DNA of 64,000 bases from a virus (IMGVR_UViG_3300013121_000033:128001-192000); one strand, 5' to 3'. Positions 279 through 49,494 are shown, counted from the first letter of the stretch. A program made the numbers and translations. The notes: generated from the sequence alone by a model not told the origin.

Positions 279-328
279 GCTTCGGAAAGTCGGGCGGTGG
301 GGTTGACTCGGGTGGTACCGTGGCCCTC

Positions 329-376
329 GTGCGTTCCCGTCTCCAACAGCGTCGCTGGCCTCAGCCACCGCTCTAG
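329..376 (+). CDS. leaderless leader peptide MRSRLQQRRWPQPPL of Pro/Trp/Gln tRNA operon
   Basis: TACCGT -10 at 316-321, GTG 7 nt later; Gln/Trp/Pro-rich; 351-376 pairs with 443-469. Confidence 0.75.
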   Translation: MRSRLQQRRWPQPPL

Positions 377-488
377 CTCCACCGGAACGCGCCCAAGATC
401 ACCCGAGCGTCCCGGCGGAGCGGAAGCCCGCACGGGGCTCTCTTGGAGTGGTGGCCGAAGCCAGCCGACAAGGGACCCCCGGACACCA

Positions 489-35788: not shown

Positions 35789-36258
35789 ACGGACCGAAGC
35801 TTCGGCGGCCGCGGTTCGTCTGCCGGTTTGCCGACGACTTCGCATCCGTCGTCACCGCAGAGGAACCCGACGCCTGTCTCCGGGTCGGGCAGGTAGAACC
35901 AGCGGGGTGCGTAACCGGTGAGGGTCGCGAGACGGCGGACGTCGTCGACGGTCGGGATGATCGTTCCCGCTTCCCACCCGTCGACCACCGTGTCGAACGC
36001 GTCGGCGACGCCGAGCGCTTCGTCGACCTCGGGGCCTTCCATGCCGTTGAGGTCGAGAACCATCGTGATCCGTGACGGGCTCGGCCGGTCAGCGAGCCGG
36101 GTGAGTCCACCGCGGTCCACCTGCGGGTCGACGTGAGGGACTTCGGGATGGAGGGGGACCGGTGCTGGGTGTTCCTCGACGAGCCCGCCGCCGGGCCGGT
36201 AGCAGCGGACCCAGAGCCGACCGTGTTCGTCGCGACGCCACCAGTCCGGTTGTCCCAC
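35785..36258 (-). CDS. hypothetical protein with HTH-like region
   Basis: ITMVLDL...EVDEALGV...WEAGT...LATLTG. Confidence 0.65.
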   Translation of the reverse strand: MGQPDWWRRDEHGRLWVRCYRPGGGLVEEHPAPVPLHPEVPHVDPQVDRGGLTRLADRPSPSRITMVLDLNGMEGPEVDEALGVADAFDTVVDGWEAGTIIPTVDDVRRLATLTGYAPRWFYLPDPETGVGFLCGDDGCEVVGKPADEPRPPKLRSV

Positions 36259-36272
36259 GCCACGAAGATAGA

Positions 36273-36348
36273 TGGTGCCCCTGGTAGGACTCGAACCTAC
36301 GCACGCGGCTTCGTAGGCCGCTGCTCTCTCCAACTGAGCTACAGGAGC
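36273..36348 (-). tRNA. tRNA-Arg(ACG)
   Basis: cloverleaf, CCA. Confidence 0.95.
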
Positions 36349-36349
36349 T

Positions 36350-36425
36350 TGGTGGGTCAGGTGGGGCTCGAACCCACGACCGTCCGATTAAAAGTCGGTG
36401 GCTCTACCAACTGAGCTACTGGCCC
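36350..36425 (-). tRNA. tRNA-Lys(TTT)
   Basis: loop CTTTTAA, CCA. Confidence 0.95.
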
Positions 36426-36429
36426 GAGG

Positions 36430-36513
36430 TGGGTGCGGTGGGATTCGAACCCACGAAGGCTTGCGCCGCTGGATTAAGAGTCCAGACCCGTTGACCGCTT
36501 GGGTAACGCACCC
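36430..36513 (-). tRNA. tRNA with Lys(CTT) anticodon and long variable arm
   Basis: loop CTCTTAA, V-arm GGCGCAAGCC, class II-like D arm. Confidence 0.88.
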
Positions 36514-36517
36514 GTGT

Positions 36518-36594
36518 TGGTGCCCCCGGCCCGGTTCGAACGGGCGACCTTCCCCTCCGGAGGGGGACGCTCTATCCGACTGAGCTACGAGAGC
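36518..36594 (-). tRNA. tRNA-Arg(CCG)
   Basis: loop CTCCGGA, CCA. Confidence 0.93.
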
Positions 36595-36613
36595 GAGACT
36601 GCTGTGTTGCCCG

Positions 36614-36687
36614 CTGCGCCCCTGGGCCTCGAACCCAGAACATCCGCCTTAACAGGACGGTCCCCCTGCCAGTAGGGGCCGAGCGCA
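36614..36687 (-). tRNA. tRNA-Asn(GTT), atypical D region
   Basis: loop CTGTTAA, G73; G at position 8. Confidence 0.82.
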
Positions 36688-36725
36688 ATCGCTAACTGTC
36701 ACACCTCCTGGTTACCGTCTCGGCG

Positions 36726-37124
36726 ATGCCCTACAAAGACCGCGAGGCGCAACGCGCCTACCAGCGTGAGTGGATGGCGCGCCGTCGCCGCGAGTGGATC
36801 GAGGCTCACGGCCCGTGTGTCGACTGCGGGTCGTGGACCGACGACCTGGAAGTCGACCACGCCGATCCCGCTTCGAAGGTGATGAATCCCACGTTGGTCT
36901 GGTCGCGACGAGCCGCAGTCCGCGACGCCGAGTTGGCGAAGTGCGTCGTCCGCTGCCACAACTGCCATCTCCGCAAGACATCTCATGAGCGGGCACCTCA
37001 GCACGGAACGGACAACATGTACGGCAAACACGGTTGCCGCTGCGATCCATGCCGAGCGGCTAGGGCGAGGGCTAAGAAGGCGAATCGTGACAGACGGAAG
37101 GCGTTGGGCCTAGCCCGCCAGTAG
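36726..37124 (+). CDS. HNH endonuclease inside tRNA operon (antisense)
   Basis: CVDC...LEVDH...CVVRCHNCH; leaderless TACCGT promoter. Confidence 0.88.
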   Translation: MPYKDREAQRAYQREWMARRRREWIEAHGPCVDCGSWTDDLEVDHADPASKVMNPTLVWSRRAAVRDAELAKCVVRCHNCHLRKTSHERAPQHGTDNMYGKHGCRCDPCRAARARAKKANRDRRKALGLARQ

Positions 37125-37143
37125 ACGGCCTAAACGCCTAATC

Positions 37144-37219
37144 GGTGACCGACCGGGTTCGAACCGGCACGTCGCACGGGGACACAACCCGCGGCTCTAC
37201 CTGTTGAGCTACGGTCACC
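37144..37219 (-). tRNA. tRNA-His(GTG)
   Basis: G-1:C73, loop TTGTGTC. Confidence 0.9.
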
Positions 37220-37252
37220 ACGAGCGGGGCCAGACGACGAGCGAGTACGCGG

Positions 37253-37363
37253 TCAGGCCCCGGCGGGGTTGCGATGTCGCAGCCCGCGCCGTCGCTTTCG
37301 GCGCGCAGCAGCGTCGACAAGTTTGTCGCGGAGCGCAGCAGCGAAGGCGTCGGCGGAGGTCAC
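37253..37363 (-). CDS. leaderless leader peptide MTSADAFAAALRDKLVDAAARRKRRRGLRHRNPAGA of His/Asn/Arg/Lys tRNA operon
   Basis: TACCGT -10 at 37371-37376; codons AAA, AAG, CGC, CGA, CGG, CAT, AAC. Confidence 0.72.
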   Translation of the reverse strand: MTSADAFAAALRDKLVDAAARRKRRRGLRHRNPAGA

Positions 37364-37823
37364 GCCCGACACGGTACCGGGACAGGTGCGGCGTGTCGAC
37401 CGATTTCTCGGGGTGGTGTCGGGCGCCGCGGTTCGCGCACGCCTGCTCCGTCGCCGCCACGGCCGGGGGTGAACACGGCAACGACGGGACCGACCCGTCT
37501 CATAGATGCCACGTCTGCGACTGCGGCGGCGAGCGCAGAAAGACGGACGTCAGCGGCGGCCGGTCGGCGGGTCGCTACGGTCACGGTGACCTCGGACCCG
37601 GCTGTGAGGAACAAACGGAGCTTCGCTGCTTCGTAGCGGGGCAGCCCCTCGATGGAGGGGCGGACCGTCATCTGCTCGATCCGGCAGCCTCGATCTTGTA
37701 GACCTCGCGGAGCGGGATGCGCCACGCCTGCCGTCGCGTCACGGTCCCGTCTGCGTTGACCGACGTGATCGTCGTCTCTTGCGGGAGTGCGGAACTGGTG
37801 TTGCGGGTCATCGCCGCGTGACG

Positions 37824-38042
37824 TTAGCCGCGGCGGGCGAGTTCGGCGTCGATCGCTGCGATCGCCCGGTCAGCGAACTCGGCGACTGTGACACCAGCGG
37901 CGGCGGCCCCGGCAGCGAACTGGTCGCGGCGGAGCGTGACGCGTGGTTTCGGTGGGAGACGTGGGCGGACGGTCGGCTGTGGGCGGGTCGGCTGTGTGCC
38001 TTTCGGGGTGACCCGGCCGCCGCCTTTCTTCGGGCGGGCCAT
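37824..38042 (-). CDS. small basic protein (MARPKKGGGRVTPKGT...)
   Basis: ORF in operon. Confidence 0.65.
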   Translation of the reverse strand: MARPKKGGGRVTPKGTQPTRPQPTVRPRLPPKPRVTLRRDQFAAGAAAAGVTVAEFADRAIAAIDAELARRG

Positions 38043-38043
38043 G

Positions 38044-38247
38044 TCACTCCACCACGGTGAGCGCGTTCGATCCGTAGGTGGCAGTCCGGTCGGTGCCGTC
38101 GATGTCGACGACCACAGACCATCCGTTGCTGTCCTCGCCGACGACACCCGTGACGCCGTCGTTGGCGACGACCCGGGTTCCGGCGGTGAACGTCTCGCGG
38201 GCGATCCGCAGGGCGCGGCGCACCTCGGGCGGGGTCAGTGCCCCCAT
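38044..38247 (-). CDS. hypothetical protein
   Basis: ORF in operon. Confidence 0.55.
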   Translation of the reverse strand: MGALTPPEVRRALRIARETFTAGTRVVANDGVTGVVGEDSNGWSVVVDIDGTDRTATYGSNALTVVE

Positions 38248-38666
38248 GCCGCGTCCTCCGCTGCCATCGCCTGCTCCTCGCGGACCAGGCGGTCCATCTC
38301 GGCGACGTCGAAGTCCTCGACGTACTCGGGGGGTTCGTGCTTGTGGTCGGCGACACAGAACCCGCAGACCGACACGAGCGGGTCGCCGTTGATGTCGTAC
38401 TGCGTGGAGGCGAACAGGTCGGCGGCCTCAGCGACCAGTTGGGAGTGGGCGCCGATGTCGCAGGCGTCGCAGCCGCCGATGACGTTGCCGTCGATCCCGG
38501 TAGCCGCCATGGCCTGTGCGAGCGCCTTCACGGTCGGCAGGTTGGCGTGGTCGACAGCGAGCTTCGCTGCGGCGGCGCACACGGCTTCGAGGACGGAGTC
38601 GCACTGTGCGTCCGAGAGCCGAACGACCGTGTCGGAGTCCGGGGTGGTGTCGTTGTCGTTGTCCAT
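38235..38666 (-). CDS. hypothetical protein (MDNDND...)
   Basis: cassette ATG; CDAC/CGFC pairs. Confidence 0.75.
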   Translation of the reverse strand: MDNDNDTTPDSDTVVRLSDAQCDSVLEAVCAAAAKLAVDHANLPTVKALAQAMAATGIDGNVIGGCDACDIGAHSQLVAEAADLFASTQYDINGDPLVSVCGFCVADHKHEPPEYVEDFDVAEMDRLVREEQAMAAEDAAWGH

Positions 38667-38702
38667 GACCCCACCCTACCCGAATGTTGTGGTCACGTCA
38701 AC
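38664..38702 (-). promoter_or_regulatory. MDND promoter cassette copy 8
   Basis: GTTGACGTGACCACAAC...TAGGGT. Confidence 0.85.
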
Positions 38703-39006
38703 GTTTGCGGATGGTGGCGGCGAGTTCCCGCTTGATGGCGTTCAACTCGGCGAACCTGACCATCCCGTCAGCGATCTCCGTTTCCGTCTCCCGGAGCCAG
38801 TGCTCCGACGCGGCAGGCCACCGGACGCGGTCCTGGCCGTACACAGCCACGATTGACATGACAAGATCAACGAGCGTCTGGCGGAGAACCACGAGGTCCC
38901 TGGCCGCCACGTCGCAGGCCGCGGAGATGTCGTCGAGTTCCGAAGCCAGTTCGTCCAACGACCACGTAGCGATCGTGTCAGCGTCCATGATCGTCCGAAC
39001 CGTCAC
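38698..39006 (-). CDS. hypothetical protein
   Basis: GTGA overlap with 17-aa MDND mini-gene. Confidence 0.65.
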   Translation of the reverse strand: MTVRTIMDADTIATWSLDELASELDDISAACDVAARDLVVLRQTLVDLVMSIVAVYGQDRVRWPAASEHWLRETETEIADGMVRFAELNAIKRELAATIRKR

Positions 39007-39056
39007 CGAGCCCGAGCGGCCGCCTGGTCGGTGAGAGAGATCGTGTCGTTGTCCAT
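39003..39056 (-). CDS. 17-aa mini-gene MDNDTISLTDQAAARAR
   Basis: cassette ATG; stop overlaps next GTG. Confidence 0.55.
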   Translation of the reverse strand: MDNDTISLTDQAAARAR

Positions 39057-39092
39057 GTGCACACCCTACGTGCCCGTTGTCGTCACGTCAAC
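39054..39092 (-). promoter_or_regulatory. MDND promoter cassette copy 9
   Basis: GTTGACGTGACGACAAC...TAGGGT. Confidence 0.85.
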
Positions 39093-39270
39093 GTTGGGGG
39101 TGATGCGGGCGATCCATTCGCTCGTCGTCTCGTCAGGGCGGCGGTCGTGCTTGCGGGCCTTCGGCACGGACGCCATCTCCAAGACCGTCCCGAGGTTGGC
39201 CTCGCCACGTCGAGTACCGACCGCGCGTCCCATGTTCTCGGTGCCCACAGACGACACAAGCTAGCGTTTG

Positions 39271-39342
39271 AGCGCCCCCCGGGAGTCGAACCCGGTTTCC
39301 ACGCTTTGCAGGCGCAGCCCTCGCCGTCCGGTGCCGAGGCGC
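39271..39342 (-). tRNA. tRNA-Cys(GCA)
   Basis: loop CTGCAAA, U73; atypical D arm. Confidence 0.85.
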
Positions 39343-39349
39343 ATCGCTA

Positions 39350-39404
39350 CCTTCGACCTCACCCTTATCAGGGGTGCGCTCTAAACCTGCTGAGCTACCT
39401 GCCG
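39350..39404 (-). pseudogene. truncated tRNA-Ile(GAT) (no T arm or 3' acceptor strand)
   Basis: intact D arm and CACCC-CTGATAA-GGGTG, then AGGTCG with no TTCGA. Confidence 0.8.
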
Positions 39405-39405
39405 T

Positions 39406-39481
39406 TGGAGCGACCGACCGGATTCGAACCGGTACAACCAGGGTGGGGTCCTGGCGTGCTAACCGTTCACACTACGGTCGC
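39406..39481 (-). tRNA. tRNA-Gly(CCC), C33
   Basis: GCG acceptor, U73 CCA, loop ACCCCAC. Confidence 0.87.
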
Positions 39482-39496
39482 AGAGGTTGTGTGCGT

Positions 39497-39570
39497 TGGA
39501 GCGGATCACCGGAATCGAACCGGTTCTTCCAGGGTGGCGTCCTGGTGTGCGGCCTTCACACCCGACCCGC
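39497..39570 (-). tRNA. tRNA-Gly(GCC), C33
   Basis: GCG acceptor, U73 CCA, loop ACGCCAC. Confidence 0.85.
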
Positions 39571-39571
39571 A

Positions 39572-39648
39572 TGGCGCCACCGAAGGGACTCGAACCCTCG
39601 ACCTTCCGCTCGACAAGCGGCTGCTCTCACCATCTGAGCTACGGCGGC
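39572..39648 (-). tRNA. tRNA-Asp(GTC)
   Basis: loop TTGTCGA, G73 CCA. Confidence 0.92.
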
Positions 39649-39667
39649 ATAGATGAAGTTGTCAGGG

Positions 39668-39740
39668 TGCCCTCGCCAGGATTCGAACCCGGGCTCGTAC
39701 CGTTAGGACCGGTCTGCTCTATCCGCTGAGCTACGAGGGC
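39668..39740 (-). tRNA. tRNA-Arg(CCT)
   Basis: loop GTCCTAA, A20. Confidence 0.9.
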
Positions 39741-39801
39741 GTGACGGTCGATGTTCCTGTTCTGTGCCTTCGCTTCACGATTCGTCGTTCCTTTCAATCG
39801 G

Positions 39802-39879
39802 TGGAGCCGGTGGTCGGACTTGAACCGACAACCTGACGTATACAAGACGCCTGCTCTATCCAAGTTGAGCTACACCGGC
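39802..39879 (-). tRNA. tRNA-Thr(TGT)
   Basis: GCC acceptor, loop CTTGTAT. Confidence 0.92.
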
Positions 39880-39881
39880 AT

Positions 39882-39957
39882 TGGAGCCCTCGCCCGGGAT
39901 CGAACCGGGGACCTCATCCCTACCATGGATGCGCTCTACCAACTGAGCTACGGGGGC
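39882..39957 (-). tRNA. tRNA-Thr(GGT)
   Basis: loop ATGGTAG. Confidence 0.94.
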
Positions 39958-39958
39958 G

Positions 39959-40034
39959 TGGAGCCTGTGACCCGGATCGAACGGGTGACCTCCGCTTTAC
40001 GAGAGCGGCGCTCTACCAACTGAGCTACACAGGC
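39959..40034 (-). tRNA. tRNA-Thr(CGT)
   Basis: loop CTCGTAA. Confidence 0.95.
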
Positions 40035-40053
40035 AACGATGTTTTGCCTTGCG

Positions 40054-40129
40054 TGGTCCAGGTCGGAATCGAACCGACGACCCCTCGCGTTTCAGGCGAG
40101 TGCTCTCTCCGAGTCTGAGCTACTGGACC
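40054..40129 (-). tRNA. tRNA-Phe(GAA)
   Basis: loop CTGAAAC. Confidence 0.93.
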
Positions 40130-40157
40130 GAGAACCGATCCAGCCTGCTCGACGGGA

Positions 40158-40250
40158 TCAGCGACAACGTCCGCCGCCGATCCCGGTGGTATCGGTGATA
40201 CCTCGGGGACCGGCGGTGGGGAATGTCCTGATCGTCAGCGTCGAACGCAT
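40158..40250 (-). CDS. leaderless leader peptide MRSTLTIRTFPTAGPRGITDTTGIGGGRCR of the Phe-Thr3-Arg-Asp-Gly2-Ile-Cys tRNA operon
   Basis: TAGTGT -10 at 40258-40263, ATG 7 nt later; has a codon for every downstream tRNA. Confidence 0.78.
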   Translation of the reverse strand: MRSTLTIRTFPTAGPRGITDTTGIGGGRCR

Positions 40251-40284
40251 GACAGCGACACTACGACACCCGACCGGTGAACGT

Positions 40285-40521
40285 CTACCGGTTTCTCGCG
40301 ACCACGGCGAGGTACCGGTCTGCGAGTTCGGACGCGACAGCGTGGTGGGCGAAGATGAGCGTGACCCCGTTCGCTGCGGGGGGCCAACACGTCGCTGCGA
40401 ACTGGGGTAGCTGAGCGTCGGCGGGGAGGGAGCCCGTCTCGTTCAGCGTCGCGTACTCGGCGTGGAGCGTCGCGAGGTAGTCGTCGGTGAACGTTCGGGC
40501 GAGTTCGTCAGCGCGTCTCAT
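40285..40521 (-). CDS. hypothetical protein
   Basis: ORF, codon bias. Confidence 0.55.
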   Translation of the reverse strand: MRRADELARTFTDDYLATLHAEYATLNETGSLPADAQLPQFAATCWPPAANGVTLIFAHHAVASELADRYLAVVARNR

Positions 40522-40532
40522 CGGTGCTCGTT

Positions 40533-40808
40533 TCAGTCGGTGGGTGTCTCGTTGAGGCCGTCGTTCGCCGACCGGTACATGTCGTAGATGTCCTTGCACG
40601 CCTGGCACATCGGCAACCGGCGCGGGTCGCGGGACGGCACCCAGACGTGGCCGCACAACGCTTCGAGCGGGGTCCCCTCGATGCGGGCAGTGAGCACCTT
40701 GTCCGCCGCGTTCTCACCGGGACGGGTCTTGACGATGTGAGCGACCGGGCCGTCCTCAGTCGCAGTCGTATCGGACGGGATCGTCGAAGGGGACTCGATG
40801 GTGGTCAA
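40533..40808 (-). CDS. DUF3039-domain protein
   Basis: AHIV...ALCGHVWVPSRDP...CQACKDIY. Confidence 0.85.
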   Translation of the reverse strand: MTTIESPSTIPSDTTATEDGPVAHIVKTRPGENAADKVLTARIEGTPLEALCGHVWVPSRDPRRLPMCQACKDIYDMYRSANDGLNETPTD

Positions 40809-41054
40809 CGGTCACTTCCTGGTCTTGGGTTTGCGGTTTGCGGGCGGGGTGCTTCCCGCGTCCCGCTCGGATGCGGGCGTGGCCGCGGGCGTGCCACGGT
40901 TCGATCGGGTGTTGCTTGCGCCACTCGGCGAGTAGACGGGCGTGTTCGCGCATGGCTGCGGCGAGGTCGTCGGGGTGGGCGGCACGGGCCTGTTCCCACA
41001 GACTGCGGTAGGTCCCGCGGCGGCTCTCGCGGTTCACTGACGGAGGCATCGAGT

Positions 41055-41378
41055 TCAGCCTTCGATCTCTCGGCGGGCCTGTTCGTAGCCGCCGCGGTCA
41101 ACTTGCTTCCATCGTGGCGGCAGGACCACGGTCGCTTCGATCGGGACACGGGTCATGAGGTGCATCGTGTCGTCCGGGGTCGGGTAGTGGTCGATCGCGC
41201 CGACAGCGCGTTCCACGGGGAACGGGACGACAGGTCCGGTCTTGCCGGGGGTGACGACCTGGACGTCGATCACGGAGTCGGCGGCGACCCAGTCGGGAAC
41301 GAGTTCCTTCGGGAGGCGAACGAACCGGGCGTCGGCAACGAAGTAGACGTTCGCGTCCGGTGGGGTGGGGCGGGTCAC
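41055..41378 (-). CDS. hypothetical protein
   Basis: GTGA overlap. Confidence 0.6.
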   Translation of the reverse strand: MTRPTPPDANVYFVADARFVRLPKELVPDWVAADSVIDVQVVTPGKTGPVVPFPVERAVGAIDHYPTPDDTMHLMTRVPIEATVVLPPRWKQVDRGGYEQARREIEG

Positions 41379-41986
41379 GGAAGCAGCACCTCCAACGCCT
41401 CGCTGTACTTCAACCCGAGACGGGCCGCGGTCGGTTCGTCCATCCTGCCCGCTGCGACCGCGGTCTTGATGCCGGACAGGTTCCGGAGGGTGTCGGCCAG
41501 CTTCACCGGTCGGGCGACCGGGTCCGCTGCGATCGCTTCGAGGTAGGGGCGGCGCGGTGTCCCCTTCTCGTGGGTGAGTAGGCCGACGGCGGTGACGACG
41601 GGTCTGATCCACAGGGGGGAGCGGGTGAACCCGGGGAAGCGACACAGCGTGGCTTGGACACGGTCGAGCGGCCAGTCGGGGACGTCCTCGGGGACGTCGT
41701 GGAGCCAGGCTGCGCTAACGGCTTGGACACGGTCAGTGGCGGTGAGGAAGGTGGTGAACATTCCGCAGACGGACGCTGTGAGCGTCGCGACCGGTTCGAC
41801 GTGGTCGGTGATGTACGGGCCGGACCCGTACTTGCCGACGGCGTCGGCGTGCGCGACGCGGGCGACAGCCTGGCATGCGTCGATCACCCTGCCAGCGTTC
41901 AGGTCGATCTGTCCGACGTAGCCTGCGCACCGGGCGCAGAGCGTGTCGCCGCCGCTTGCCTGTTCGCAGATGAGGCACACGGTCAT
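41375..41986 (-). CDS. HD-domain hydrolase, RelA/SpoT-hydrolase-like
   Basis: AH...PYITDH, AWLHDVPED, LLT, VKLADTLRN. Confidence 0.85.
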   Translation of the reverse strand: MTVCLICEQASGGDTLCARCAGYVGQIDLNAGRVIDACQAVARVAHADAVGKYGSGPYITDHVEPVATLTASVCGMFTTFLTATDRVQAVSAAWLHDVPEDVPDWPLDRVQATLCRFPGFTRSPLWIRPVVTAVGLLTHEKGTPRRPYLEAIAADPVARPVKLADTLRNLSGIKTAVAAGRMDEPTAARLGLKYSEALEVLLP

Positions 41987-42423
41987 CGCGCGCCATCCCG
42001 TTCGAAGCGGAACATCGGGTGGACCGGCCGATCGTCGGGCACCATCGCGCCGCCACCGGCGCAGACCCGTTCGTGGTGGTCGCGTTCGGTCTGCTTGTAC
42101 CAGTCGAGGATCGGGCCGCCGTACGACAGGCTGTGGACCATCCGGATGCGGTCGAGGCACCGTTCGTACTGTGCGGTCGTGCCGCCGTACTCGACCTGGT
42201 CGAGCGCCCACGCCAGGCCGTCGCTCAGGAGTCGAACGCGTGCCTCGGCGTCGTGGACGTACGCCCAGGTCGTGTTCTCCCTCCACGCCGCCTCGGCCTG
42301 CTGTTGGCGGGCGACGAACGACAGGACATCGAGTGCCGTATCGGTGTCCGGGTTCTTGTCCCGAGCGTGGGACTTGAGGACAGCCGCGGTCACGTCGACC
42401 ATCGTCGGCTCAGTGGTACTCAT
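41983..42423 (-). CDS. hypothetical protein
   Basis: ORF in operon. Confidence 0.65.
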   Translation of the reverse strand: MSTTEPTMVDVTAAVLKSHARDKNPDTDTALDVLSFVARQQQAEAAWRENTTWAYVHDAEARVRLLSDGLAWALDQVEYGGTTAQYERCLDRIRMVHSLSYGGPILDWYKQTERDHHERVCAGGGAMVPDDRPVHPMFRFERDGAR

Positions 42424-42959
42424 GGGTGTTCCTCGATTCGAGCGAGTAGAAGGTCAAGGTCATCGAACGACATCGTGACCACTTCGGTGTCGCGTAAGCG
42501 GCCGATCTCGGCCCCCGCCTGCGCTGCTCGACGGACAAGCCCAACGAACCGGTCGCGGATGAGGGCTTCAACCCGGTCGGCTTCGGCGCGTTGCGCTGAG
42601 CGTTCGGCAGCGATGGCGGCAGCCTTCGCTTCGCGTTTGGCGATCGCGTGGACGCCGCGGTGTTCGATCATCCGGCGTGCTCCGGACAGCGAGTAGTGCC
42701 GCTGGTCGGTCCACCCGGGGTGGGTGCCGATCGCCATGATGAACCGGCAGTGGGCATCGAGGAGGACCGACACCTTGAACTCGCCGGGGTCGTCTCCCAA
42801 GACGATCCGGTCCCGTGGCGCTTGGAACGTGACGACGGTCCACGGTCGAGCGTCCCGTCCGCGTTGGCCGCTGTAGCCGATGCGGTGGAGCGGGATCGGG
42901 TCGACTTTCGTGAACCCGTGCTCCGCGGCGAACGCGTCGAGATCAGCGGCGTCAACCAC
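42420..42959 (-). CDS. hypothetical protein
   Basis: ORF in operon. Confidence 0.65.
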   Translation of the reverse strand: MVDAADLDAFAAEHGFTKVDPIPLHRIGYSGQRGRDARPWTVVTFQAPRDRIVLGDDPGEFKVSVLLDAHCRFIMAIGTHPGWTDQRHYSLSGARRMIEHRGVHAIAKREAKAAAIAAERSAQRAEADRVEALIRDRFVGLVRRAAQAGAEIGRLRDTEVVTMSFDDLDLLLARIEEHP

Positions 42960-43085
42960 GGCGCACCCGCCGGAGGATCACGGCCGCCGATCCGGTGACC
43001 GCGGCCCACACGGCGAGAGTGGTGAGGCACCCGAACCCGAGACACCCCAGGTTCAGATAGATGCGGGGGGCGCAACCGCGGCTCA

Positions 43086-43328
43086 TCACGCGACCCGGTC
43101 GGCTCGGAGCACAGGGGCCATCGAGTAGTTGCCGAGCGGCAGGCACGTCTCGACACCGTCGCGCACCTTCACCCCGACACGACGAAGGACGCCGTTGACA
43201 TCGGGGATGACGACGAACTTCGCGGTGCGGGCCTCGACGGTGACCGGGGTGCGAAGGGTGGAGTCGGTCGCCCAGCGCATCTCGTACGTCTTGCCAACCT
43301 TGAACTCGGTGATCATGTCGTTGTCCAT
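43086..43328 (-). CDS. hypothetical protein (MDNDMITEFKVGKTY...)
   Basis: cassette ATG; FKVGKTY...RTAKFV...YSMAPVLRA. Confidence 0.78.
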   Translation of the reverse strand: MDNDMITEFKVGKTYEMRWATDSTLRTPVTVEARTAKFVVIPDVNGVLRRVGVKVRDGVETCLPLGNYSMAPVLRADRVA

Positions 43329-43364
43329 GCCCACACCCTACCGTTCTGTTATGGTCACGTCAAC
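43326..43364 (-). promoter_or_regulatory. MDND promoter cassette copy 10
   Basis: GTTGACGTGACCATAAC...TAGGGT. Confidence 0.85.
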
Positions 43365-43577
43365 GTTCGGGGTGGCGATGGCGGCAAGAATGTTCGCGAT
43401 CCGGGCCACGTCGCCAGGGTGCGGCCAGGTCAGATCGTCGTCAGAGCACATGAACCCCAGGTCAGAGTGGCGTCGCTCCCACTCGGCGTGCAGCACCTCA
43501 GCGAGGTCATCACACTCGGAGAGAGCAGCGAGCGCTCGCGACGCAGCGACCAGCTTGCGAGGAGTGACTAGCTTCAC
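43338..43577 (-). CDS. hypothetical protein
   Basis: GTGA overlap. Confidence 0.5.
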   Translation of the reverse strand: MKLVTPRKLVAASRALAALSECDDLAEVLHAEWERRHSDLGFMCSDDDLTWPHPGDVARIANILAAIATPNVDVTITER

Positions 43578-46390
43578 GCTGTCCTCCGGTCGTCGTCGTC
43601 ACAGTCGTCGTTGTCGGGTGGGGGGATGTTGAGCGGCCGGTGACCGTGCTCCTCGACGAAGTCGTGATCGAGTAGACCGACGAGGTCGCCCCATTCGTCT
43701 TGGACGCCGTCGTTCAACGCTGTCGCTGTCGATGCGAGGTCTGCGAACGTGGCGTCGGGGTTGGCGTCGACCCAACCGGACTCGATAGCTCGTTTGAGGA
43801 CGAAGGTGACCGAGGCCCTGTCGAGGTCGTCGTCGTAGCGGAGCGTCTTGAGGTGCCCTTCCCACAGGTCGGGGTCGGCGTAGTCGTCGATGAACCGTTG
43901 GTACTGGGCGGTTTCCCACTCGGCTCGAAGCGTGTCCCGGAGGGCGTCGAACGCGGCCCCTGCGCGTCGCCCGATCGCCGTGGCGCGGTCGCGGGCGGTG
44001 TTGTACTCGGCGGTGGCGGCGTCGAGCGCGTCGAGTTCGGCCCGGTCGAGCCACGCGGCTTTCGCGATGAAGTCGTCACGGCTGTACTGGGGGACGCCCC
44101 AGGTGTTGAACCGGGACAGGGTGATGCCGTCGCGGGTTCGTTTCCACTCGTACTCGACACACGTCTTGACCGGCGCTTCGATCTTTCCGGTGGCAGGACG
44201 GTCCGGTGGCGGGAGGAGCGGCGGGAACCACAGGTGTGCGTAGAACAGGCCGCGCTTGTGCTCGTTGTCCTTCCGGAAGATGACGCCGTAGAACCGGGGG
44301 TCGGCGTCGATCGTTGACCCCCAGCCGTTGCTGTAGGACCAGGAGCGGTCGGCGGCGTACCGTGCGGCGACCACGACGACTCGGGTGGCGACTTCCACGA
44401 TCTCGTGGGGGCGGAGATGGTCAGAGGGGTGGGCGTCGTGGTCCCAGCCGGTCCACCGGTCGGAGTGCCAGAGTAGACGCCAGCGGCGCCACCCGGTCCC
44501 GGTGACAGCCCATTCGGTGTCCACGGCGACCCCGGTTCGGGTGGGACGCCAGCGGTGGACCCACACGTTGCCGTCGTCCGCTGCCGAGTAGGCGACGTAG
44601 GTGCCGTTCGGTTTACGGGCGACAGCGAGCAGGTCCGGGACCGCGGCTTGGAACTCGGCGACCTTCGCTGCTTCCTTGTCGGCTTCGGTGTCACCGCGTT
44701 CGTCGTTCGTGACGCGCCGCCGGTACTCGGCGACGACCGCGGCAGCGACCCGGTCGTCGATGTCGCCGTCGAGGACGAGGGGCCGATGCCAGCGGTTCCC
44801 GAGCTTCCACCAGTCGACGAGTTCCCCCACCTTCGCTTCGGCGTCGGGGACGGAGACGGAGCAGTCGCGTGCGATGACCCCGGCGAGCATCGCCCGGACT
44901 GGTGCCTCGGCTTCGTGTTCGCGGCGCTTCGCTTCGAGGGTCGCCCGGATCAACGGGAGGACGGTCAGATAGTTGTGTCGCTCGGTGCGGGCGTTCAGGT
45001 AGAAGTCGAGGTCGTCGGGGTTGACGAGGTCGAACGCGATGACGAACGGGTCGGCCGGGTGGATGAGGACGGTGGCCCGATGCTTGTACGGCCACTCGCC
45101 CCACGCGCCACGCCACCCGGCCGGTTCGCTGGGGTGTTCCCATCCCCATCGTTTGTCGGTGCGGTCGAACTTGACCGTCAGGTACTCGGCGCCTTGGTGG
45201 CGGCGGGTGCCGTCGATCACGACGGGGGTCATCTCGGGGAGGCCGCGGGCGTCGCTGGGGAACACGCGGCCGCCGTAGCCGTCGCGGTCGACGTGGTTCT
45301 CGGATCGGAAGTCGGTCGAGTTGAACGCGACAACGACTCGCATCCCGGGGCGGAGCCCGGCGTTGAGGTCTTTGAGCCACTGCGAGAACGGGGGGCGGCC
45401 GGTGCCGATCGCCCGTTCGGCGTCGGTGATGATCGCGACGTGTCCGGCGTCGTAGTCGTCGGGTTGGAGGACGGAGAGGCCGGGGTGGGGAAGGGGGTGG
45501 AACACGGTGGTGCGGTCGATGAGCCCCTGGATGACGAGCGCTGCCCGCATGTAGTGGCGGTGCTTCGAGTCGGCTTTCTCTTCGGCTTCGGCCCATTCGC
45601 GGCTGCCGGGCTTGAGGTCGACCCAGTCGCCGTGTTCGGCGCGTTCGTGTGACCATGCGCGGCGGCGGAACAGGGAGGTGAACTCGTCGGCGAGGGGGAC
45701 GAGACGGTGGCCGACGCGGAGGTCGGTGTGCATCCGGTACAGGTTGTCGCCGTTGCGGATCAGCCAGTACGAGTCGGTGTTCGCGTCCTTCATCGCGAGT
45801 GTCGTCCACGGGTTGCCGTAGTCGCGGTTCTGGCGTGACGCGACGAGGACAACGACCCCTTTCGGTTCGGGGATGATCTGCTCGACGTGGGCGGGGTCGG
45901 CGGCGAGCCACGCGTCGAACTCGGGGAGGTCGTTGATGTCGATGCCGCCGACCTCGGCTGCGATCCGGGATTCCTCATCCATCGCGAGGGTCATCTGGCG
46001 GATCGTGATGGGGGTGTCGGCGGGGGCCGGGTCGCCTTCGGTGAGGCGGACGATGCTTTCGTCACGGCCCAGGTACAGGTTGATCGTCCAGATGCCTTCC
46101 TGCATTCGGGCGACCATCTTCTTGAGCGGTTCGAGCACCTGGTTGGCACGGGCCATCTCGGCGTCGAGACGAGCGCGGAGCGCCTGCTGCGCGGCGGCGA
46201 CTTCGGACTGCTTGCGGCGCACGAGGGAATGGACTTCCGCCATGCGTGCCTTCACGACCGCGGGATCGCTGGTGACGTGCACGAGCGCGGTGCTGTGCTC
46301 CTGGTCGGCCAGGTCTGCCGCTTCGGCGGTCAAGCGTTCGAGGTCAGCGACCAGATCGGCGACGGACGGCTCAGCGTTGTCGGCGGTCAC
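43574..46390 (-). CDS. large hypothetical protein with N-terminal coiled coil
   Basis: 938 aa; GTG start overlapping upstream stop. Confidence 0.85.
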   Translation of the reverse strand: MTADNAEPSVADLVADLERLTAEAADLADQEHSTALVHVTSDPAVVKARMAEVHSLVRRKQSEVAAAQQALRARLDAEMARANQVLEPLKKMVARMQEGIWTINLYLGRDESIVRLTEGDPAPADTPITIRQMTLAMDEESRIAAEVGGIDINDLPEFDAWLAADPAHVEQIIPEPKGVVVLVASRQNRDYGNPWTTLAMKDANTDSYWLIRNGDNLYRMHTDLRVGHRLVPLADEFTSLFRRRAWSHERAEHGDWVDLKPGSREWAEAEEKADSKHRHYMRAALVIQGLIDRTTVFHPLPHPGLSVLQPDDYDAGHVAIITDAERAIGTGRPPFSQWLKDLNAGLRPGMRVVVAFNSTDFRSENHVDRDGYGGRVFPSDARGLPEMTPVVIDGTRRHQGAEYLTVKFDRTDKRWGWEHPSEPAGWRGAWGEWPYKHRATVLIHPADPFVIAFDLVNPDDLDFYLNARTERHNYLTVLPLIRATLEAKRREHEAEAPVRAMLAGVIARDCSVSVPDAEAKVGELVDWWKLGNRWHRPLVLDGDIDDRVAAAVVAEYRRRVTNDERGDTEADKEAAKVAEFQAAVPDLLAVARKPNGTYVAYSAADDGNVWVHRWRPTRTGVAVDTEWAVTGTGWRRWRLLWHSDRWTGWDHDAHPSDHLRPHEIVEVATRVVVVAARYAADRSWSYSNGWGSTIDADPRFYGVIFRKDNEHKRGLFYAHLWFPPLLPPPDRPATGKIEAPVKTCVEYEWKRTRDGITLSRFNTWGVPQYSRDDFIAKAAWLDRAELDALDAATAEYNTARDRATAIGRRAGAAFDALRDTLRAEWETAQYQRFIDDYADPDLWEGHLKTLRYDDDLDRASVTFVLKRAIESGWVDANPDATFADLASTATALNDGVQDEWGDLVGLLDHDFVEEHGHRPLNIPPPDNDDCDDDDRRTA

Positions 46391-46719
46391 GGTTCGACCG
46401 CCGACGTGATGCGCTTCGGGTCGAGCATGAGGCGACCCCAGCGGGGCGAGTAGACGACGACGGTGCGCCGGTTCACCTTCGCGACGGGGACCGGTTCCGG
46501 GTCGCTGAGGCCGCGGCGCGGGAGGTAGGTGACGAGGTCGCCGACGCCGACCGTGAGCGTCGTCGCGGTGACGGACGGCGGGGCGAGGCCGTCGGCTTCG
46601 TCGAGGGAGAACTCGTCGCCGCACGCCGAGCAGTGCATCTGGTCGCCCATGAAGTCCATCCGGTGACCGCCCGCGCCGCACGTCGCGCACCGGAACCGGT
46701 CGATGAGGGTGATGGTCAT
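46387..46719 (-). CDS. zinc-ribbon hypothetical protein
   Basis: CATC...CSAC. Confidence 0.65.
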   Translation of the reverse strand: MTITLIDRFRCATCGAGGHRMDFMGDQMHCSACGDEFSLDEADGLAPPSVTATTLTVGVGDLVTYLPRRGLSDPEPVPVAKVNRRTVVVYSPRWGRLMLDPKRITSAVEP

Positions 46720-46976
46720 GCCGTCGCCTCCTGTGCGAGCTTCTTGGCGCATCGCGGGCAGAGCCGTTCGGGGTCGACCGTGTGGAGCCAGTCGTCAGCG
46801 ATGGTCGCGAGTCGGGAGGCGGTGCCGCAGAGCGGAACGAGCGGCGGGAACCGATCGTCGGGCCACCGCGGAACGGGTCGGGAGACGTGGATGACGCGTC
46901 GGGCGGACTGGCCGCGCGCCGGTCGGGCCGCCCACTGGTACTCGAACGGCTCGGCGAGGTCGGGGAGTCTGCTCAT
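46716..46976 (-). CDS. hypothetical protein
   Basis: H...LCG...CPRC. Confidence 0.6.
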   Translation of the reverse strand: MSRLPDLAEPFEYQWAARPARGQSARRVIHVSRPVPRWPDDRFPPLVPLCGTASRLATIADDWLHTVDPERLCPRCAKKLAQEATA

Positions 46977-47068
46977 CCGTGGGTCCTTCGGTAGTGGGTC
47001 TTGTCGCCAGCGGCGATCGCCCACGACGATGGCTCGACAGCGGTGAAGGTGACGGTGTCGTTGTCCAT
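46973..47068 (-). CDS. 31-aa MDND mini-gene, truncated paralog of 34528-34872
   Basis: MDNDTVTFTAVEPSSWAIAAGDKTH vs MDNDDTVIFKAVEPSTYAIAVGDTIH. Confidence 0.65.
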   Translation of the reverse strand: MDNDTVTFTAVEPSSWAIAAGDKTHYRRTHG

Positions 47069-47106
47069 GGCGCACACTGTACCCGGCTTGTTGTGGTCAC
47101 GTCAAC
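47066..47106 (-). promoter_or_regulatory. MDND promoter cassette copy 11
   Basis: GTTGACGTGACCACAAC...TACAGT. Confidence 0.85.
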
Positions 47107-47113
47107 ATTGTTG

Positions 47114-47155
47114 TGCGGGTGGAGGGAGTCGAACCCTCACGCCTTCCGGCGTCGA
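47114..47155 (-). pseudogene. 3' half of a tRNA-Leu-like class II tRNA
   Basis: V-arm ACGCCGGAAGGCGT, T arm GAGGGTTCGACTCCCTC, CACCCGC-A. Confidence 0.75.
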
Positions 47156-47583
47156 CTGGCGTTTCGCTTGTCATTCCACTCTCGCTTCGCCCGGCTACAG
47201 ATGTCGCAGCAGCAGCGCCGCTTCTGCCACGCGTACATCGTGCCGTGGGCGAACCCCTTGTCGATCCCCCTGAACGGGCTCGCCTTGCCGAGATTGGTCT
47301 TTCTGTTGTTCTCCGCTGGGGTCAACAACTGATAGTTGTCGATCCGATCGTCCATCGGGTCATCGTTGACGTGGTCGACGTGCTCGTCGGGGGCCAGCGT
47401 TCGCCCGAGATGCTGTGTCATCTGCCAGCGGGCGTAGGACATGCTGGTCCTGCGACCGTTTGCCAAGTGGATGACGACCTGCCGTCGTGGTCGGCTGCCG
47501 CCCGGACGCACAACGTACGGACCGTAAACCTTTGTGATCGCCACATCGAACGGATTGTGCATTGGGATGGCGAGTTTACTCAC
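47137..47583 (-). CDS. HNH homing endonuclease
   Basis: LGRTLAPDEHVDHVNDDPMDDRIDNYQLLTPAENNRK. Confidence 0.9.
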   Translation of the reverse strand: MSKLAIPMHNPFDVAITKVYGPYVVRPGGSRPRRQVVIHLANGRRTSMSYARWQMTQHLGRTLAPDEHVDHVNDDPMDDRIDNYQLLTPAENNRKTNLGKASPFRGIDKGFAHGTMYAWQKRRCCCDICSRAKREWNDKRNASRRRKA

Positions 47584-47640
47584 GGCGTGTCTGCCAGCTT
47601 TACAGGCTGCCCCACCTCTCCGAACGGTGGCGCGCTCCCC
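47563..47640 (-). ncRNA. non-canonical tRNA-Tyr(GTA)-like structure
   Basis: CAGC-CTGTAAA-GCTG hairpin flanked by further hairpins; no TTCGA loop. Confidence 0.4.
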
Positions 47641-47687
47641 GGTTCCGGGACCGGAAGGCGCGGCTGAATGCTCGTGCGCTCCGGTCC

Positions 47688-47726
47688 CTACGGAAGTAGG
47701 CGGCGGCGATACAAGCGTCGGGTCAC
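47688..47726 (-). CDS. leaderless leader peptide MTRRLYRRRLLP of Tyr/Leu tRNA locus
   Basis: TAGAGT -10 at 47735-47740; rare TTG, TAT, CTA, CTT codons; hairpin follows. Confidence 0.62.
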   Translation of the reverse strand: MTRRLYRRRLLP

Positions 47727-47825
47727 GGCAGAGAACTCTACTCGTCGAGGTCGCCGGTGTCGACGGGGTTGAGTTCGTCGGCGTGTTCCTGACAGAGGTC
47801 TAATCGAGACATGACCATGGTTCGT

Positions 47826-47864
47826 GTTGACGTGACCACAACAGTCGTGTAGGGTGTGGACATG
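47826..47864 (+). promoter_or_regulatory. MDND promoter cassette copy 12
   Basis: GTTGACGTGACCACAAC...TAGGGT...ATGGACAACGAC. Confidence 0.88.
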
Positions 47865-48164
47865 GACAACGACACGCTGATGCAAGCCCGGTGGGACGCC
47901 TTCATGGCGGACTGTGCAGCCGCGGCGGCCCGCGGGAAGGACTGGGACGCTGTCGGTGCGGCGTGGCGGGCCGAGCATCCCGACACCCGGTTCACCGACC
48001 TGCCCTACATGGAGCAGGTTCACCTGATCGCCGGGCTCGACGGGTTCTATCCGGACTTGATCGACGACGCCGTGGCGGTGTTCCTCGCTGACGACGAGGA
48101 CTTGGACTACGACATGGCTCTGCCGGTGGAGGCCGCGGCGCAGGCTGCCGCCAACGCCTACTGA
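47862..48164 (+). CDS. hypothetical protein (MDNDTLMQ...)
   Basis: cassette ATG. Confidence 0.75.
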   Translation: MDNDTLMQARWDAFMADCAAAAARGKDWDAVGAAWRAEHPDTRFTDLPYMEQVHLIAGLDGFYPDLIDDAVAVFLADDEDLDYDMALPVEAAAQAAANAY

Positions 48165-48221
48165 TCCGAAGGGTTCCGGGGGGGGGGTTGATACTGCCGT
48201 CTTGGAGCCCGAAGGCGAGAT

Positions 48222-48259
48222 TCAGAGCCCCTGGTGGACTCCCGCCCAACCGGGGGCTC
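48222..48259 (+). terminator. hairpin downstream of 47862-48164
   Basis: AGAGCCCCTGG...CCGGGGGCTCT. Confidence 0.5.
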
Positions 48260-48280
48260 TCTCGCGTATGGTCACCCGTC

Positions 48281-48718
48281 ATGGCGTACAAGCAGGCATG
48301 CAAGAAGCAGTCGCTCCGGTTCTACGCGGCCCTCGGGATCGTCCCCGGCTACCCGGGTGGTGCGGGCGAGAGCATGCGACGCGATCCATGGTGGACGGAG
48401 GGGATCGTGGCGGAGGAGTGGAACGAGGCCGCCGCCGAGTCCGCCGCGACGTTCCGTGTGTACCCGCCGTCAGTGGTCGTGCAGGTGGCGACGGTCGGCT
48501 ACCAGATCGAGGGTGACGGTCAACGGGCGGAACAGGTGGTGACGTTGACCGGAACGTTGAACCCTCACTGGGGTGACGACCAGGAGGCGTGGCGTGCCGC
48601 GGTCCTGGACGTCGTTCAGCGGCTCGGTGACCGGTTCGGGCAGGAGACAGTCCAGGTGAACTTCGAAGAGGTCGAGGTCGTCTACTACCAGCGGCACCCG
48701 GCAGCAGTGACGGTGTGA
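48281..48718 (+). CDS. hypothetical protein
   Basis: TATGGT -10 then ATG; GIVPGY...GTLNP...FGQETVQV. Confidence 0.75.
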   Translation: MAYKQACKKQSLRFYAALGIVPGYPGGAGESMRRDPWWTEGIVAEEWNEAAAESAATFRVYPPSVVVQVATVGYQIEGDGQRAEQVVTLTGTLNPHWGDDQEAWRAAVLDVVQRLGDRFGQETVQVNFEEVEVVYYQRHPAAVTV

Positions 48719-48719
48719 G

Positions 48720-49337
48720 ATGGGATGCGAGCATTCGCTGCTGGTGAACGGCATCTGCCGGGATTGCGAACCGGACGAACCCGGGCCTCACCAGCGGGGA
48801 CGGATCGTCGTCAATGACCGCCACGTCCACTACATCGACCGTGACGGTCCGGGCTGCTACTACTGCCGACGAGACGCCACGTCGCTGACGTTCGACCACG
48901 TCGTCCCTCGCGCCGTGTTCCGTGCTGGCCTCGCCCCGATCCCTGCCGGGCGGCTCAACAAGGTGCTGGCATGCCGGAAGTGCCAGAAAGACAAGGGCGC
49001 TCGACTCGATCTCGATTGGGACCCGCGGTGGTACGACCATGGCGGCCTGTACCGGCCGACACCCGAGGACCGGTTCGTTCGAGGCGTCCCCGACGACCTG
49101 CGCATCCTGCTCCCGTTCTCGAACGGGCCGCACAGTGTGCGCGCCTTCCGGGTCCTCTACCGCGACACCCTGGACTCTGAGGGCGGATGGAGTGGGGCTC
49201 GAACCCACACGGACGCTGCGAACGCCCCAACCGTTTTCGAGACGGCGGCCGGTAGTCCATCACTCGGCTTATCCATCCAGGCGGAGGGGGCGAGGATCGA
49301 ACTCGCAGTGAACTCCACAGAGCCCACACCCGGGTAG
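48720..49337 (+). CDS. HNH endonuclease (3' end antisense to two tRNA-Ser)
   Basis: CYYC...TFDHVVPR...NKVLACRKCQKDKG. Confidence 0.8.
   Translation: MGCEHSLLVNGICRDCEPDEPGPHQRGRIVVNDRHVHYIDRDGPGCYYCRRDATSLTFDHVVPRAVFRAGLAPIPAGRLNKVLACRKCQKDKGARLDLDWDPRWYDHGGLYRPTPEDRFVRGVPDDLRILLPFSNGPHSVRAFRVLYRDTLDSEGGWSGARTHTDAANAPTVFETAAGSPSLGLSIQAEGARIELAVNSTEPTPG
49184..49278 (-). tRNA. tRNA-Ser(CGA)
   Basis: GGA acceptor, long V arm, G73. Confidence 0.92.
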
Positions 49338-49373
49338 CAACCGGGCTGCCTTGCCAGCCGTAGCGACCCCTCC
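49282..49373 (-). tRNA. tRNA-Ser(GCT)
   Basis: loop TTGCTAC, long V arm, G73. Confidence 0.92.
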
Positions 49374-49406
49374 GAGAACTTGCGGGGTCGCGCGTGACGT
49401 CGCCGT

Positions 49407-49454
49407 CTAGCTCGACCCCTCGGGGGAACTCGATGACAGCGACGAACGGATCAC
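49407..49454 (-). CDS. leaderless leader peptide MIRSSLSSSSPEGSS of tRNA-Ser operon
   Basis: TATCGT -10 at 49462-49467; 8 of 15 codons Ser. Confidence 0.8.
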   Translation of the reverse strand: MIRSSLSSSSPEGSS

Positions 49455-49494
49455 GGCCGGAACGATACGCCCACCGTCCCGGCCGTGTCCACGA

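Follow-up and report, generated by a model that had tools for sequence, protein, structure and literature searches.

Classical leader-peptide attenuators, including trpL, hisL, thrL, pheL, the multivalent ilvGMEDA leader and pheM of pheST, place a short open reading frame (ORF) ahead of an operon, tie its codons to the operon's product, and combine a run of one codon with a U-tract hairpin. To our knowledge, ribosome-mediated attenuation has so far been known only for amino-acid and synthetase operons and a few other protein operons, and no report of tRNA genes controlled by a leader peptide emerged from a full-text literature search. The T-box riboswitch also uses a leader RNA to link a specific tRNA's status to the expression of translation-related genes; it carries a conserved T-box sequence and binds the tRNA directly, without a ribosome. 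The nearest described system is the mycobacterial 'Cys ribulon', a set of polycysteine leaderless short open reading frames (sORFs) that act as attenuators, where Cys alone is sensed and the stalled ribosome frees the ribosome binding site (RBS) of a downstream protein gene (Canestrari et al., 10.1101/834739). Here, we analyse a 30-codon leader ORF ahead of a tRNA operon (cluster F) in IMGVR_UViG_3300013121_000033:128001-192000, a 64,000-nt stretch of phage DNA (the window) that comprises bases 128001-192000 of one 225,159-bp virus record. This record has a GC content of 68%, and ARAGORN finds 26 tRNA genes in it, in about eight clusters. The leader's codons match the tRNAs of its own operon, and the same matching is found at other clusters of the genome, which suggests that each leader senses the supply of the tRNAs encoded behind it.

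The locus resembles the classical attenuators in several respects: a short ORF stands ahead of the operon with codons tied to the operon's product, its stop codon stands at the base of a hairpin, helices 1:2 and 2:3 exclude each other, and candidate regulatory codons are found immediately 5′ of segment 1 (Table 1). It differs from them in that the tRNAs themselves would be regulated, up to ten at once, each represented once or a few times; in that the message is predicted to be leaderless, with neither a run of one codon nor a U-tract hairpin; and in that the last helix engages the acceptor strand of a tRNA. With the Cys ribulon it shares an actinobacterial setting, an sORF predicted to be leaderless, stalling at cognate codons as the putative signal, a proposed RNA re-pairing in place of an intrinsic terminator, and several independent units per genome (10.1101/834739). 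In contrast to that system, the next gene is a tRNA that has no RBS, each unit would sense another tRNA set, and the place of the RBS as the element that is sequestered would be taken by the acceptor strand at 40130-40119. Unlike the T-box, several tRNAs would be sensed together; a search of positions 36000-41000 for Rfam cis-regulators, T-box included, with E values up to 1 returned none, the matches being tRNAs and chance-level sub-threshold hits. Probably new in attenuation are the tRNA genes as the target, the multi-isoacceptor 'barcode', the predicted leaderless message and the missing terminator.

An initial annotation of the sequence had described a 30-codon leader, 19 of whose 29 non-start codons are read by the tRNAs of the operon. 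The ORF indeed translates to 30 residues followed by TGA, and the count is exact for the ten-tRNA set, every member of which is represented among the leader's codons (ACG twice, ACC four times, ACA, AGG, TTC, GAT, GGG, GGT twice, GGC twice, ATC three times and TGT); counting the eight solid tRNAs alone, 15 of the 29 codons are cognate. The leader also contains, as had been pointed out, the rare AGG and ACA together with all three Thr types. Across 159 long ORFs, ACA accounts for 8% of Thr codons, AGG for 10% of Arg, GAT for 8% of Asp and TGT for 16% of Cys, and the operon has dedicated tRNAs for both ACA and AGG. In a blind scan of 1,572 small ORFs, low-complexity frames led a plain binomial test to overstate significance; because spurious ORFs of this kind score alike, the binomial values were dropped as over-optimistic and empirical nulls were used instead. 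Among 1,851 windows of 29 codons taken from real genes, the probability of at least 19 cognate codons is 0.0016 and that of covering all ten tRNAs is 0.0005; with the eight solid tRNAs, the corresponding values are 0.0038 (count) and 0.0032 (coverage).

Further, the design is repeated elsewhere in the genome. A selection rule that is blind to codon content, namely a -10 element of the form TAnnGT followed after 7-8 nt by the ATG or GTG of a short ORF, yields one short ORF ahead of each of clusters A, B, E, F, G and H; the spacer is exactly 7 nt at five clusters and 8 nt at H, where the Tyr/Leu locus is broken. All five testable leaders (A, B, E, F and G) cover every tRNA of their own cluster (Table 1), with empirical P values of 0.007 for A, 0.009 for B, 0.12 for E, 0.02 for F (for which the seven tRNAs called by ARAGORN were used) and 0.0015 for G, and a Fisher combined P of 2.8e-6. 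In the matrix of leaders against clusters, the true assignment ranks first of 120 permutations with a score of 14.7, compared with 3.4 for the best assignment that places every leader off its own cluster. For example, leader A uses CAG alone among the Gln codons and stands before tRNA-Gln(CTG), and leader B also uses CAA and stands before tRNA-Gln(TTG). Leader H carries TTG, TAT, CTA and CTT, which are among the genome's rarest codons.

Some of these leaders look like relatives of each other at the sequence level. Codons 2-7 of F align with codons 3-8 of G, with the Thr codon ACG of F opposite the Ser codons TCG and TCA of G, and GTTCTC closes both spacers just before the tRNA; the two look like paralogous cassettes. 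Leaders A and B have their first codons in common and a similar hairpin that starts right at the TAG stop, their cassettes being located at L013:431-503 (-) and at window positions 316-440 (+). They look like duplicates that were retuned to different tRNA sets.

The Caulobacter phage phiCbK, an unrelated phage from a different host phylum and without sequence similarity to this one, has two leaders of the same kind. Its leader 1, a 45-codon ORF before a Pro/Lys/Leu/Ala/Ser cluster, has 23 cognate codons out of 44 and covers 10 of 10 tRNAs; its leader 2, a 32-codon ORF before a Phe/Val/Ile/Gln cluster, has 10 of 31 and covers 7 of 7, in the layout TTGACA, 17 nt, TAGGGT, 7 nt, ATG. As here, a promoter is followed after about 7 nt by the ATG of a short ORF that covers the tRNAs of its own cluster only, and the phiCbK leaders match neither each other's clusters nor further ones. 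The core of the initial annotation, a translated leader that mirrors the tRNAs of its operon, is thus strengthened by the layout, by own-cluster specificity at five other clusters, and by phiCbK.

The leader at cluster F is preceded by -35-like and -10-like elements (Table 1), and no Shine-Dalgarno sequence lies upstream of its ATG. Approximately 25 genes of the phage start 6-8 nt past a TAGGGT -10 element, behind a conserved extended -35; this is the phage's standard leaderless arrangement, and by the same geometry the leader is predicted to be a leaderless mRNA. Leaders E, F, G and H have in common a T.GAC(A/G)-type -35 at 17-18 nt, and the flank CGAGAAA.CGGT.GAC is common to the promoters of E and F; leaders A and B have no matching -35 and share the extended -10 GGTACCGT. 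The cassette with about 25 copies consists of the extended -35 (GTTGACGTGAC.ACAAC), 17-18 nt, TAGGGT, 6-8 nt and ATG GAC AAC GAC, and is found in the window at 254, 8460, 9951, 24170, 26335, 31569, 34884, 38678, 39068, 43340, 47081, 47850(+), 58989 and 62304, with other copies outside it. The genes behind it are unrelated, yet almost all start with Met-Asp-Asn-Asp ('MDND'), first codons that may form part of the promoter or of a signal for leaderless initiation. At 39068, 47081 and 8460, the cassette is followed only by truncated ORFs of 17-45 codons. When ORFs shorter than 45 codons that lack the 'MDND' start and follow a recognisable -35/-10 pair are collected, 4 of 4 (E, F, G and H) precede tRNA clusters.

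These promoter and codon data bear directly on whether there is a sensor at all. The leader could instead be a chance open frame in 68% GC DNA, where short ORFs are plentiful in all frames and spurious low-complexity ones attain similar binomial p-values, and its stem-loop could stabilise a 3′ end, terminate the orphan gene that lies upstream without the help of a U tract, or be a site where the tRNA precursor is processed by an RNase III-type cleavage. The stem-loop starts about 50 nt past that gene's stop, the leader's GC content at third codon positions (GC3) is 0.69 compared with 0.86 in genes and is not gene-like, and there are no relatives for a conservation test, all of which agree with a chance frame. 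Such a frame is nevertheless improbable as the source of own-cluster matching with full coverage at five clusters, of the first rank among 120 assignments and of the combined P value, particularly as the ORFs were chosen by a promoter rule independent of their codons, as E, F, G and H exhaust the short ORFs of non-'MDND' type behind a recognisable -35/-10 pair, and as phiCbK has the same design. Because no other explanation was found for own-cluster codon matching, sensing is proposed, and we consider it very likely that the 30-codon leader is a functional codon-matched sensor of its operon's own tRNA supply.

The complete explanation is a sensor mini-gene at the head of the operon, which includes the promoter, the sensing step, the choice of helices and an output on the acceptor strand; as a whole, we assign it a probability of roughly 0.55. 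In this scheme, the sigma-70-type promoter would start the RNA at or beside the ATG, and completion of the leader would need 19 codons to be served by Phe, the three Thr, Arg-CCT, Asp, both Gly and the Ile/Cys remnants, such that the ribosome's progress would report the decoding of the operon's codons. Free RNA would form a long stem-loop, made of 1:2 and a basal extension onto segment 3; a ribosome over segment 1 would allow helix 2:3, and a ribosome at the stop codon would mask segment 3. The ribosome's position would decide if segment 3 holds segment 4; if it does not, segment 4 would take the whole 5′ acceptor strand of tRNA-Phe, and this sequestration would impede the folding of the first tRNA and its cleavage by RNase P, and hence the processing of the precursor. 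The predicted result is negative feedback, in which slow early decoding yields more mature tRNA and a smooth run to the stop codon yields less.

The RNA structure of the leader and spacer contains the elements of this scheme. The four pairings named in the initial annotation (1:2, 2:3, 3:4 and 4:tRNA) all exist, and each one beats its shuffles (Table 1). Helices 1:2 and 2:3 are strong and mutually exclusive, and with the basal arm added, hairpin 1:2 becomes a ~80-nt stem-loop, nearly all of it within the ORF, whose end is 28 nt from tRNA-Phe. Compared with shuffles, the folding of the spacer has a z score of -2.5 alone and -3.5 when tRNA-Phe is included; the stem-loop is not a repeat and occurs a single time in the genome. 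All six leaders have their stop codon at the foot of a GC-rich hairpin, so that termination of translation there must reshape the RNA that follows. Only 3 of the 26 tRNAs have, in the 35 nt ahead of them, a segment significantly complementary to their nucleotides 1-12, and these are the first tRNAs of A, F and G (z = -3.6, -3.9 and -2.5, respectively). In the equilibrium model, the acceptor strand at A and G is released when the RNA is masked by a ribosome that has stalled on the early cognate codons, and stays paired upstream when the ribosome is at the stop codon or when there is none. Formation of the native acceptor stem costs 0.6 kcal for an early stall vs 3.7 kcal at the stop codon for A, 0.1 vs 0.9 kcal for G, and 3.8-5.7 vs 8.6 kcal for F, where the drop occurs for stalls at codons 3-8; this lower early-stall cost at A, F and G fits negative feedback.

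A number of observations weigh against this explanation, in whole or in part. The four-helix cascade is anatomically real, but as a switch it is partly contradicted by equilibrium modelling: at F, the 4:tRNA-Phe pairing has a probability of 1.0 at every ribosome position, and 3:4 is out-competed by 4:acceptor in all modelled states. Stalls of the F ribosome at codons 9-18, which include ACA, TTC, ACC and GGT, mask segment 1, favour 2:3 and raise the acceptor-stem cost to 9-12 kcal; because stalls at codons 3-8 and 9-18 act oppositely, the 19 cognate codons do not all push in one direction, and the cost shifts by up to 8 kcal with the ribosome's position without a single trend. The equilibrium switch at F was accordingly rejected as a demonstration of switching, and the initial annotation was right to mark its on/off direction as inference. 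The control it had proposed through 4:tRNA-Phe stands as far as a real pairing, with anti-acceptor segments confined to A, F and G, but no such pairing is found at leaders B and E, so that acceptor sequestration cannot be an output common to all six. The cognate codons are scattered across the entire ORF, unlike those of classical attenuators, which are clustered before segment 1, and the leader's GC3 does not exceed that of non-coding DNA. Of the ten downstream tRNA genes previously counted, eight are solid, but two are remnants, an Ile fragment and a Cys-like gene. No leader ORF of this kind precedes cluster C (Met) or D (Ala/Val), and the tRNA array of Streptomyces phage JustBecause has no convincing codon-matched ORF, so the design is not universal. 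Finally, because the phage is without relatives, the ORF and helices are beyond conservation and covariation tests.

In view of these results, acceptor-strand sequestration as proposed is a tentative and rather doubtful candidate for the output. Somewhat more doubtful is the specific form of a terminator-free, ribosome-gated pre-tRNA folding switch, whereby leader translation would decide anti-acceptor capture and thus RNase P maturation, and replacement tRNAs would be released only when decoding of the very codons they serve falters, for example through host anticodon nucleases or tRNA depletion during infection. The absence of a clean switch at F in the equilibrium model also agrees with a translated leader that regulates nothing, in which ribosomes protect the 5′ end or unfold the hairpin for processing and the codons are adapted to locally abundant tRNAs; the leaderless layout places a ribosome at the 5′ triphosphate end, and translation must melt a stem-loop that is nearly all inside the ORF. 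Yet adaptation would favour the whole phage tRNA set or the host's common codons, whereas each leader matches its own cluster but not the others, and the leaders prefer the rare ACA, AGG, CTA and TAT, which makes a translated leader of this kind improbable.

Another output for the same sensor, in place of tRNA folding, would be the continuation of transcription. Rho could load onto the C-rich RNA of leader and spacer, or a hairpin could cause a non-canonical stop, this hairpin being 2:3 or else 3:4 with the U/C-rich UUCUC that directly precedes the tRNA. The initial annotation had reported no U-tract terminator, and this holds: no hairpin with a U tract is found anywhere in 36000-42000, and no U run lies behind any of the helices. 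Mycobacterial RNA polymerase is reported to need a U tract for intrinsic termination, and Rho loading behind a stalled ribosome would lower tRNA output at the very time of shortage, the opposite of what homeostasis requires. These points make transcriptional control unlikely, even though much of the anatomy suits it: the strong, exclusive 1:2 and 2:3 helices, with segment 1 just 3′ of four cognate codons in a row, ATC AGG ACA TTC, in a trp-type arrangement; the stop codon held in a GC-rich hairpin foot at all six leaders; the GTTCTC before the tRNA at both F and G; and clusters B and E, where the missing anti-acceptor pairing implies some other output. A lax genome-wide scan for hairpins followed by T produced 232 matches, mostly intragenic, and was set aside as uninformative. 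Returning to the codon-matched sensor, because there is no intrinsic terminator its output would be post-transcriptional or Rho-dependent, and may act through tRNA folding or RNase P, through Rho or non-canonical termination, through RNase III cleavage of the long stem, through protection of the 5′ end or through RNA stability.

Table 1. Positions and properties of the cluster F leader, its RNA helices and tRNA operon, and of the leader units at the other clusters. Positions are those of the window unless another contig is named; z scores are against shuffles.
Feature	Position	Strand	Energy (kcal/mol)	Details
-35-like element TAGACG	40282..40287	-		18 nt to the -10; overlaps the upstream orphan gene, whose stop codon is the TAG
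-10-like element TAGTGT	40258..40263	-		followed by a 7-nt spacer, 40257-40251
Leader ORF (F)	40158..40250	-		30 codons, then TGA; ATG predicted at or beside the transcription start; 19/29 codons cognate; 10/10 tRNAs covered
Basal 5′ arm	40223..40234	-	-13.6	codons 6-10; pairs with segment 3; z -3.7
Segment 1	40205..40219	-		pairs with segment 2; in minimum free energy and centroid folds
Apical mini-hairpin of the long stem-loop	40188..40202	-		codons 17-21
Segment 2	40171..40184	-		pairs with segment 1 or, alternatively, segment 3
Segment 3	40154..40167	-		last codon and TGA; can pair with the basal arm or with segment 2 or 4
Segment 4 ('anti-acceptor')	40134..40144	-		pairs with 40130-40119 (tRNA-Phe 5′ end)
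Helix 1:2			-27.1	z -3.9
Helix 2:3			-23.6	z -5.2; forms with nt 1-40 masked
Helix 3:4			-11.7	z -2.7; weakest link
Helix 4:tRNA-Phe 5′ end			-15.1 to -16.4	z -3.9
tRNA-Phe (GAA)	40053..40129	-		first tRNA of the operon; ARAGORN; Rfam 65.2 bits
tRNA genes Thr-CGT, Thr-GGT, Thr-TGT, Arg-CCT, Asp-GTC, Gly-GCC, Gly-CCC	39406..40034	-		ARAGORN and Rfam
tRNA-Ile(GAT) 5′ fragment and degenerate tRNA-Cys(GCA)-like gene, fused	39271..39404	-		match leader codons ATC (three) and TGT
Leader A	L013:431-503	-		Gln-CTG, Glu (two); 4/18 codons cognate; 3/3 tRNAs covered
Unit B	316..376	+		-10 316-321; 15-codon leader 329-376; before Pro-CGG, Trp, Gln-TTG; 5/14 codons cognate; 3/3 tRNAs covered
Unit E	37253..37376	-		-10 37376-37371; 36-codon leader 37363-37253; before His, then Asn, Arg-CCG, Lys (two), Arg-ACG; 12/35 codons cognate; 6/6 tRNAs covered
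Unit G	49407..49467	-		-10 49467-49462; 15-codon leader 49454-49407; before Ser-GCT, Ser-CGA; 6/14 codons cognate (8 are Ser); 2/2 tRNAs covered; anti-acceptor segment present
Unit H	47688..47740	-		-10 47740-47735; 12-codon leader 47726-47688; broken Tyr/Leu tRNA locus

The purpose and control of phage tRNA genes have been debated for decades, with codon compensation and escape from tRNA-targeting defences among the proposed roles (PMC10264068). If the sensor reading is true, a codon-mirroring leader would constitute a direct, isoacceptor-specific feedback loop for tRNA genes. The missing terminators point to the folding or processing of pre-tRNA as the level of control; an output of this kind would be new among leader peptides. 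Moreover, six differently 'barcoded' units behind similar promoters form a natural test set within one genome, in which swaps of codons or leaders should re-address the response, and the units could act as compact, programmable reporters of individual tRNA supply.

The stop of an orphan 78-aa gene (40287-40285) and tRNA-Phe are separated by a spacer of 155 nt, which contains the leader ORF. A second small frame of 15 codons, among them ATC, AGG, GAT and TTC, occupies 40120-40167 (-); its TTG start codon lies in segment 3, 7 nt upstream of the TGA that ends the leader, and the frame crosses segment 4 and the acceptor strand of tRNA-Phe to reach a TAG at tRNA nucleotides 8-10. Re-initiation at this TTG would melt the 4:acceptor helix, although the frame may be a chance one.

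The neighbouring genes are on the minus strand and nearly all are orphans; one carries DUF3039, an actinobacterial domain. No relative close enough for a comparison of the locus was found. Searches of the region against phages with megablast and blastn gave generic tRNA matches only, and the 78-aa protein encoded upstream, used as query in tblastn and in word searches, retrieved itself alone. A neighbouring 1038-aa protein has no relative in IMG/VR and has homologues at 40-49% identity in metagenomes; three contigs that carry such homologues were fetched, and none has a tRNA nearby. Exact tRNA-Phe words had 0 matches in IMG/VR and promoter words had 2 chance matches; the DUF3039 neighbour, tried as a route to relatives, led only to an unrelated lake phage. 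In three runs of one activated-sludge study, contigs match window positions 36200-49600 without differences at about 3x depth; besides these identical low-depth pieces there were only foreign tRNA matches, with no variants for comparison. These contigs probably represent the source habitat or sample and not independent support.

Past leader H, the region 47110-47640 (-) contains a Tyr-type anticodon arm (GTA, ~47609-47595), followed by an ORF that overlaps at its end an orphan tRNA T arm and 3′ acceptor (~47140-47113). The tRNA locus there appears to have been disrupted by a putative HNH endonuclease gene, with the leader and promoter left in place. The tRNA-Lys(CTT) at 36428-36513 (-) is 86 nt, above the normal tRNA-Lys length, and its best Rfam assignment is a weak tmRNA match (27.5 bits), ahead of tRNA.

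In the operon of cluster F, ARAGORN calls seven tRNAs (Phe, Thr-CGT, Thr-GGT, Thr-TGT, Arg-CCT, Asp and Gly-CCC); Gly-GCC at 39500-39570 (-) is absent from these calls and is scored by Rfam at 36.8 bits. The Ile(GAT) fragment (~39404-39355) comprises the acceptor strand, D arm and anticodon arm, and is followed by the Cys(GCA)-like remnant at 39342-39271 (-); Rfam aligns the pair as a single tRNA with a 61-nt insertion at 28.5 bits, slightly below threshold. Both tRNA-Gly genes (CCC and GCC; 39406-39570, -) have identical anticodon stems and a C instead of the universal U at position 33, which recalls the anticodon-loop changes that were proposed as a means of evading tRNA nucleases (PMC10264068).

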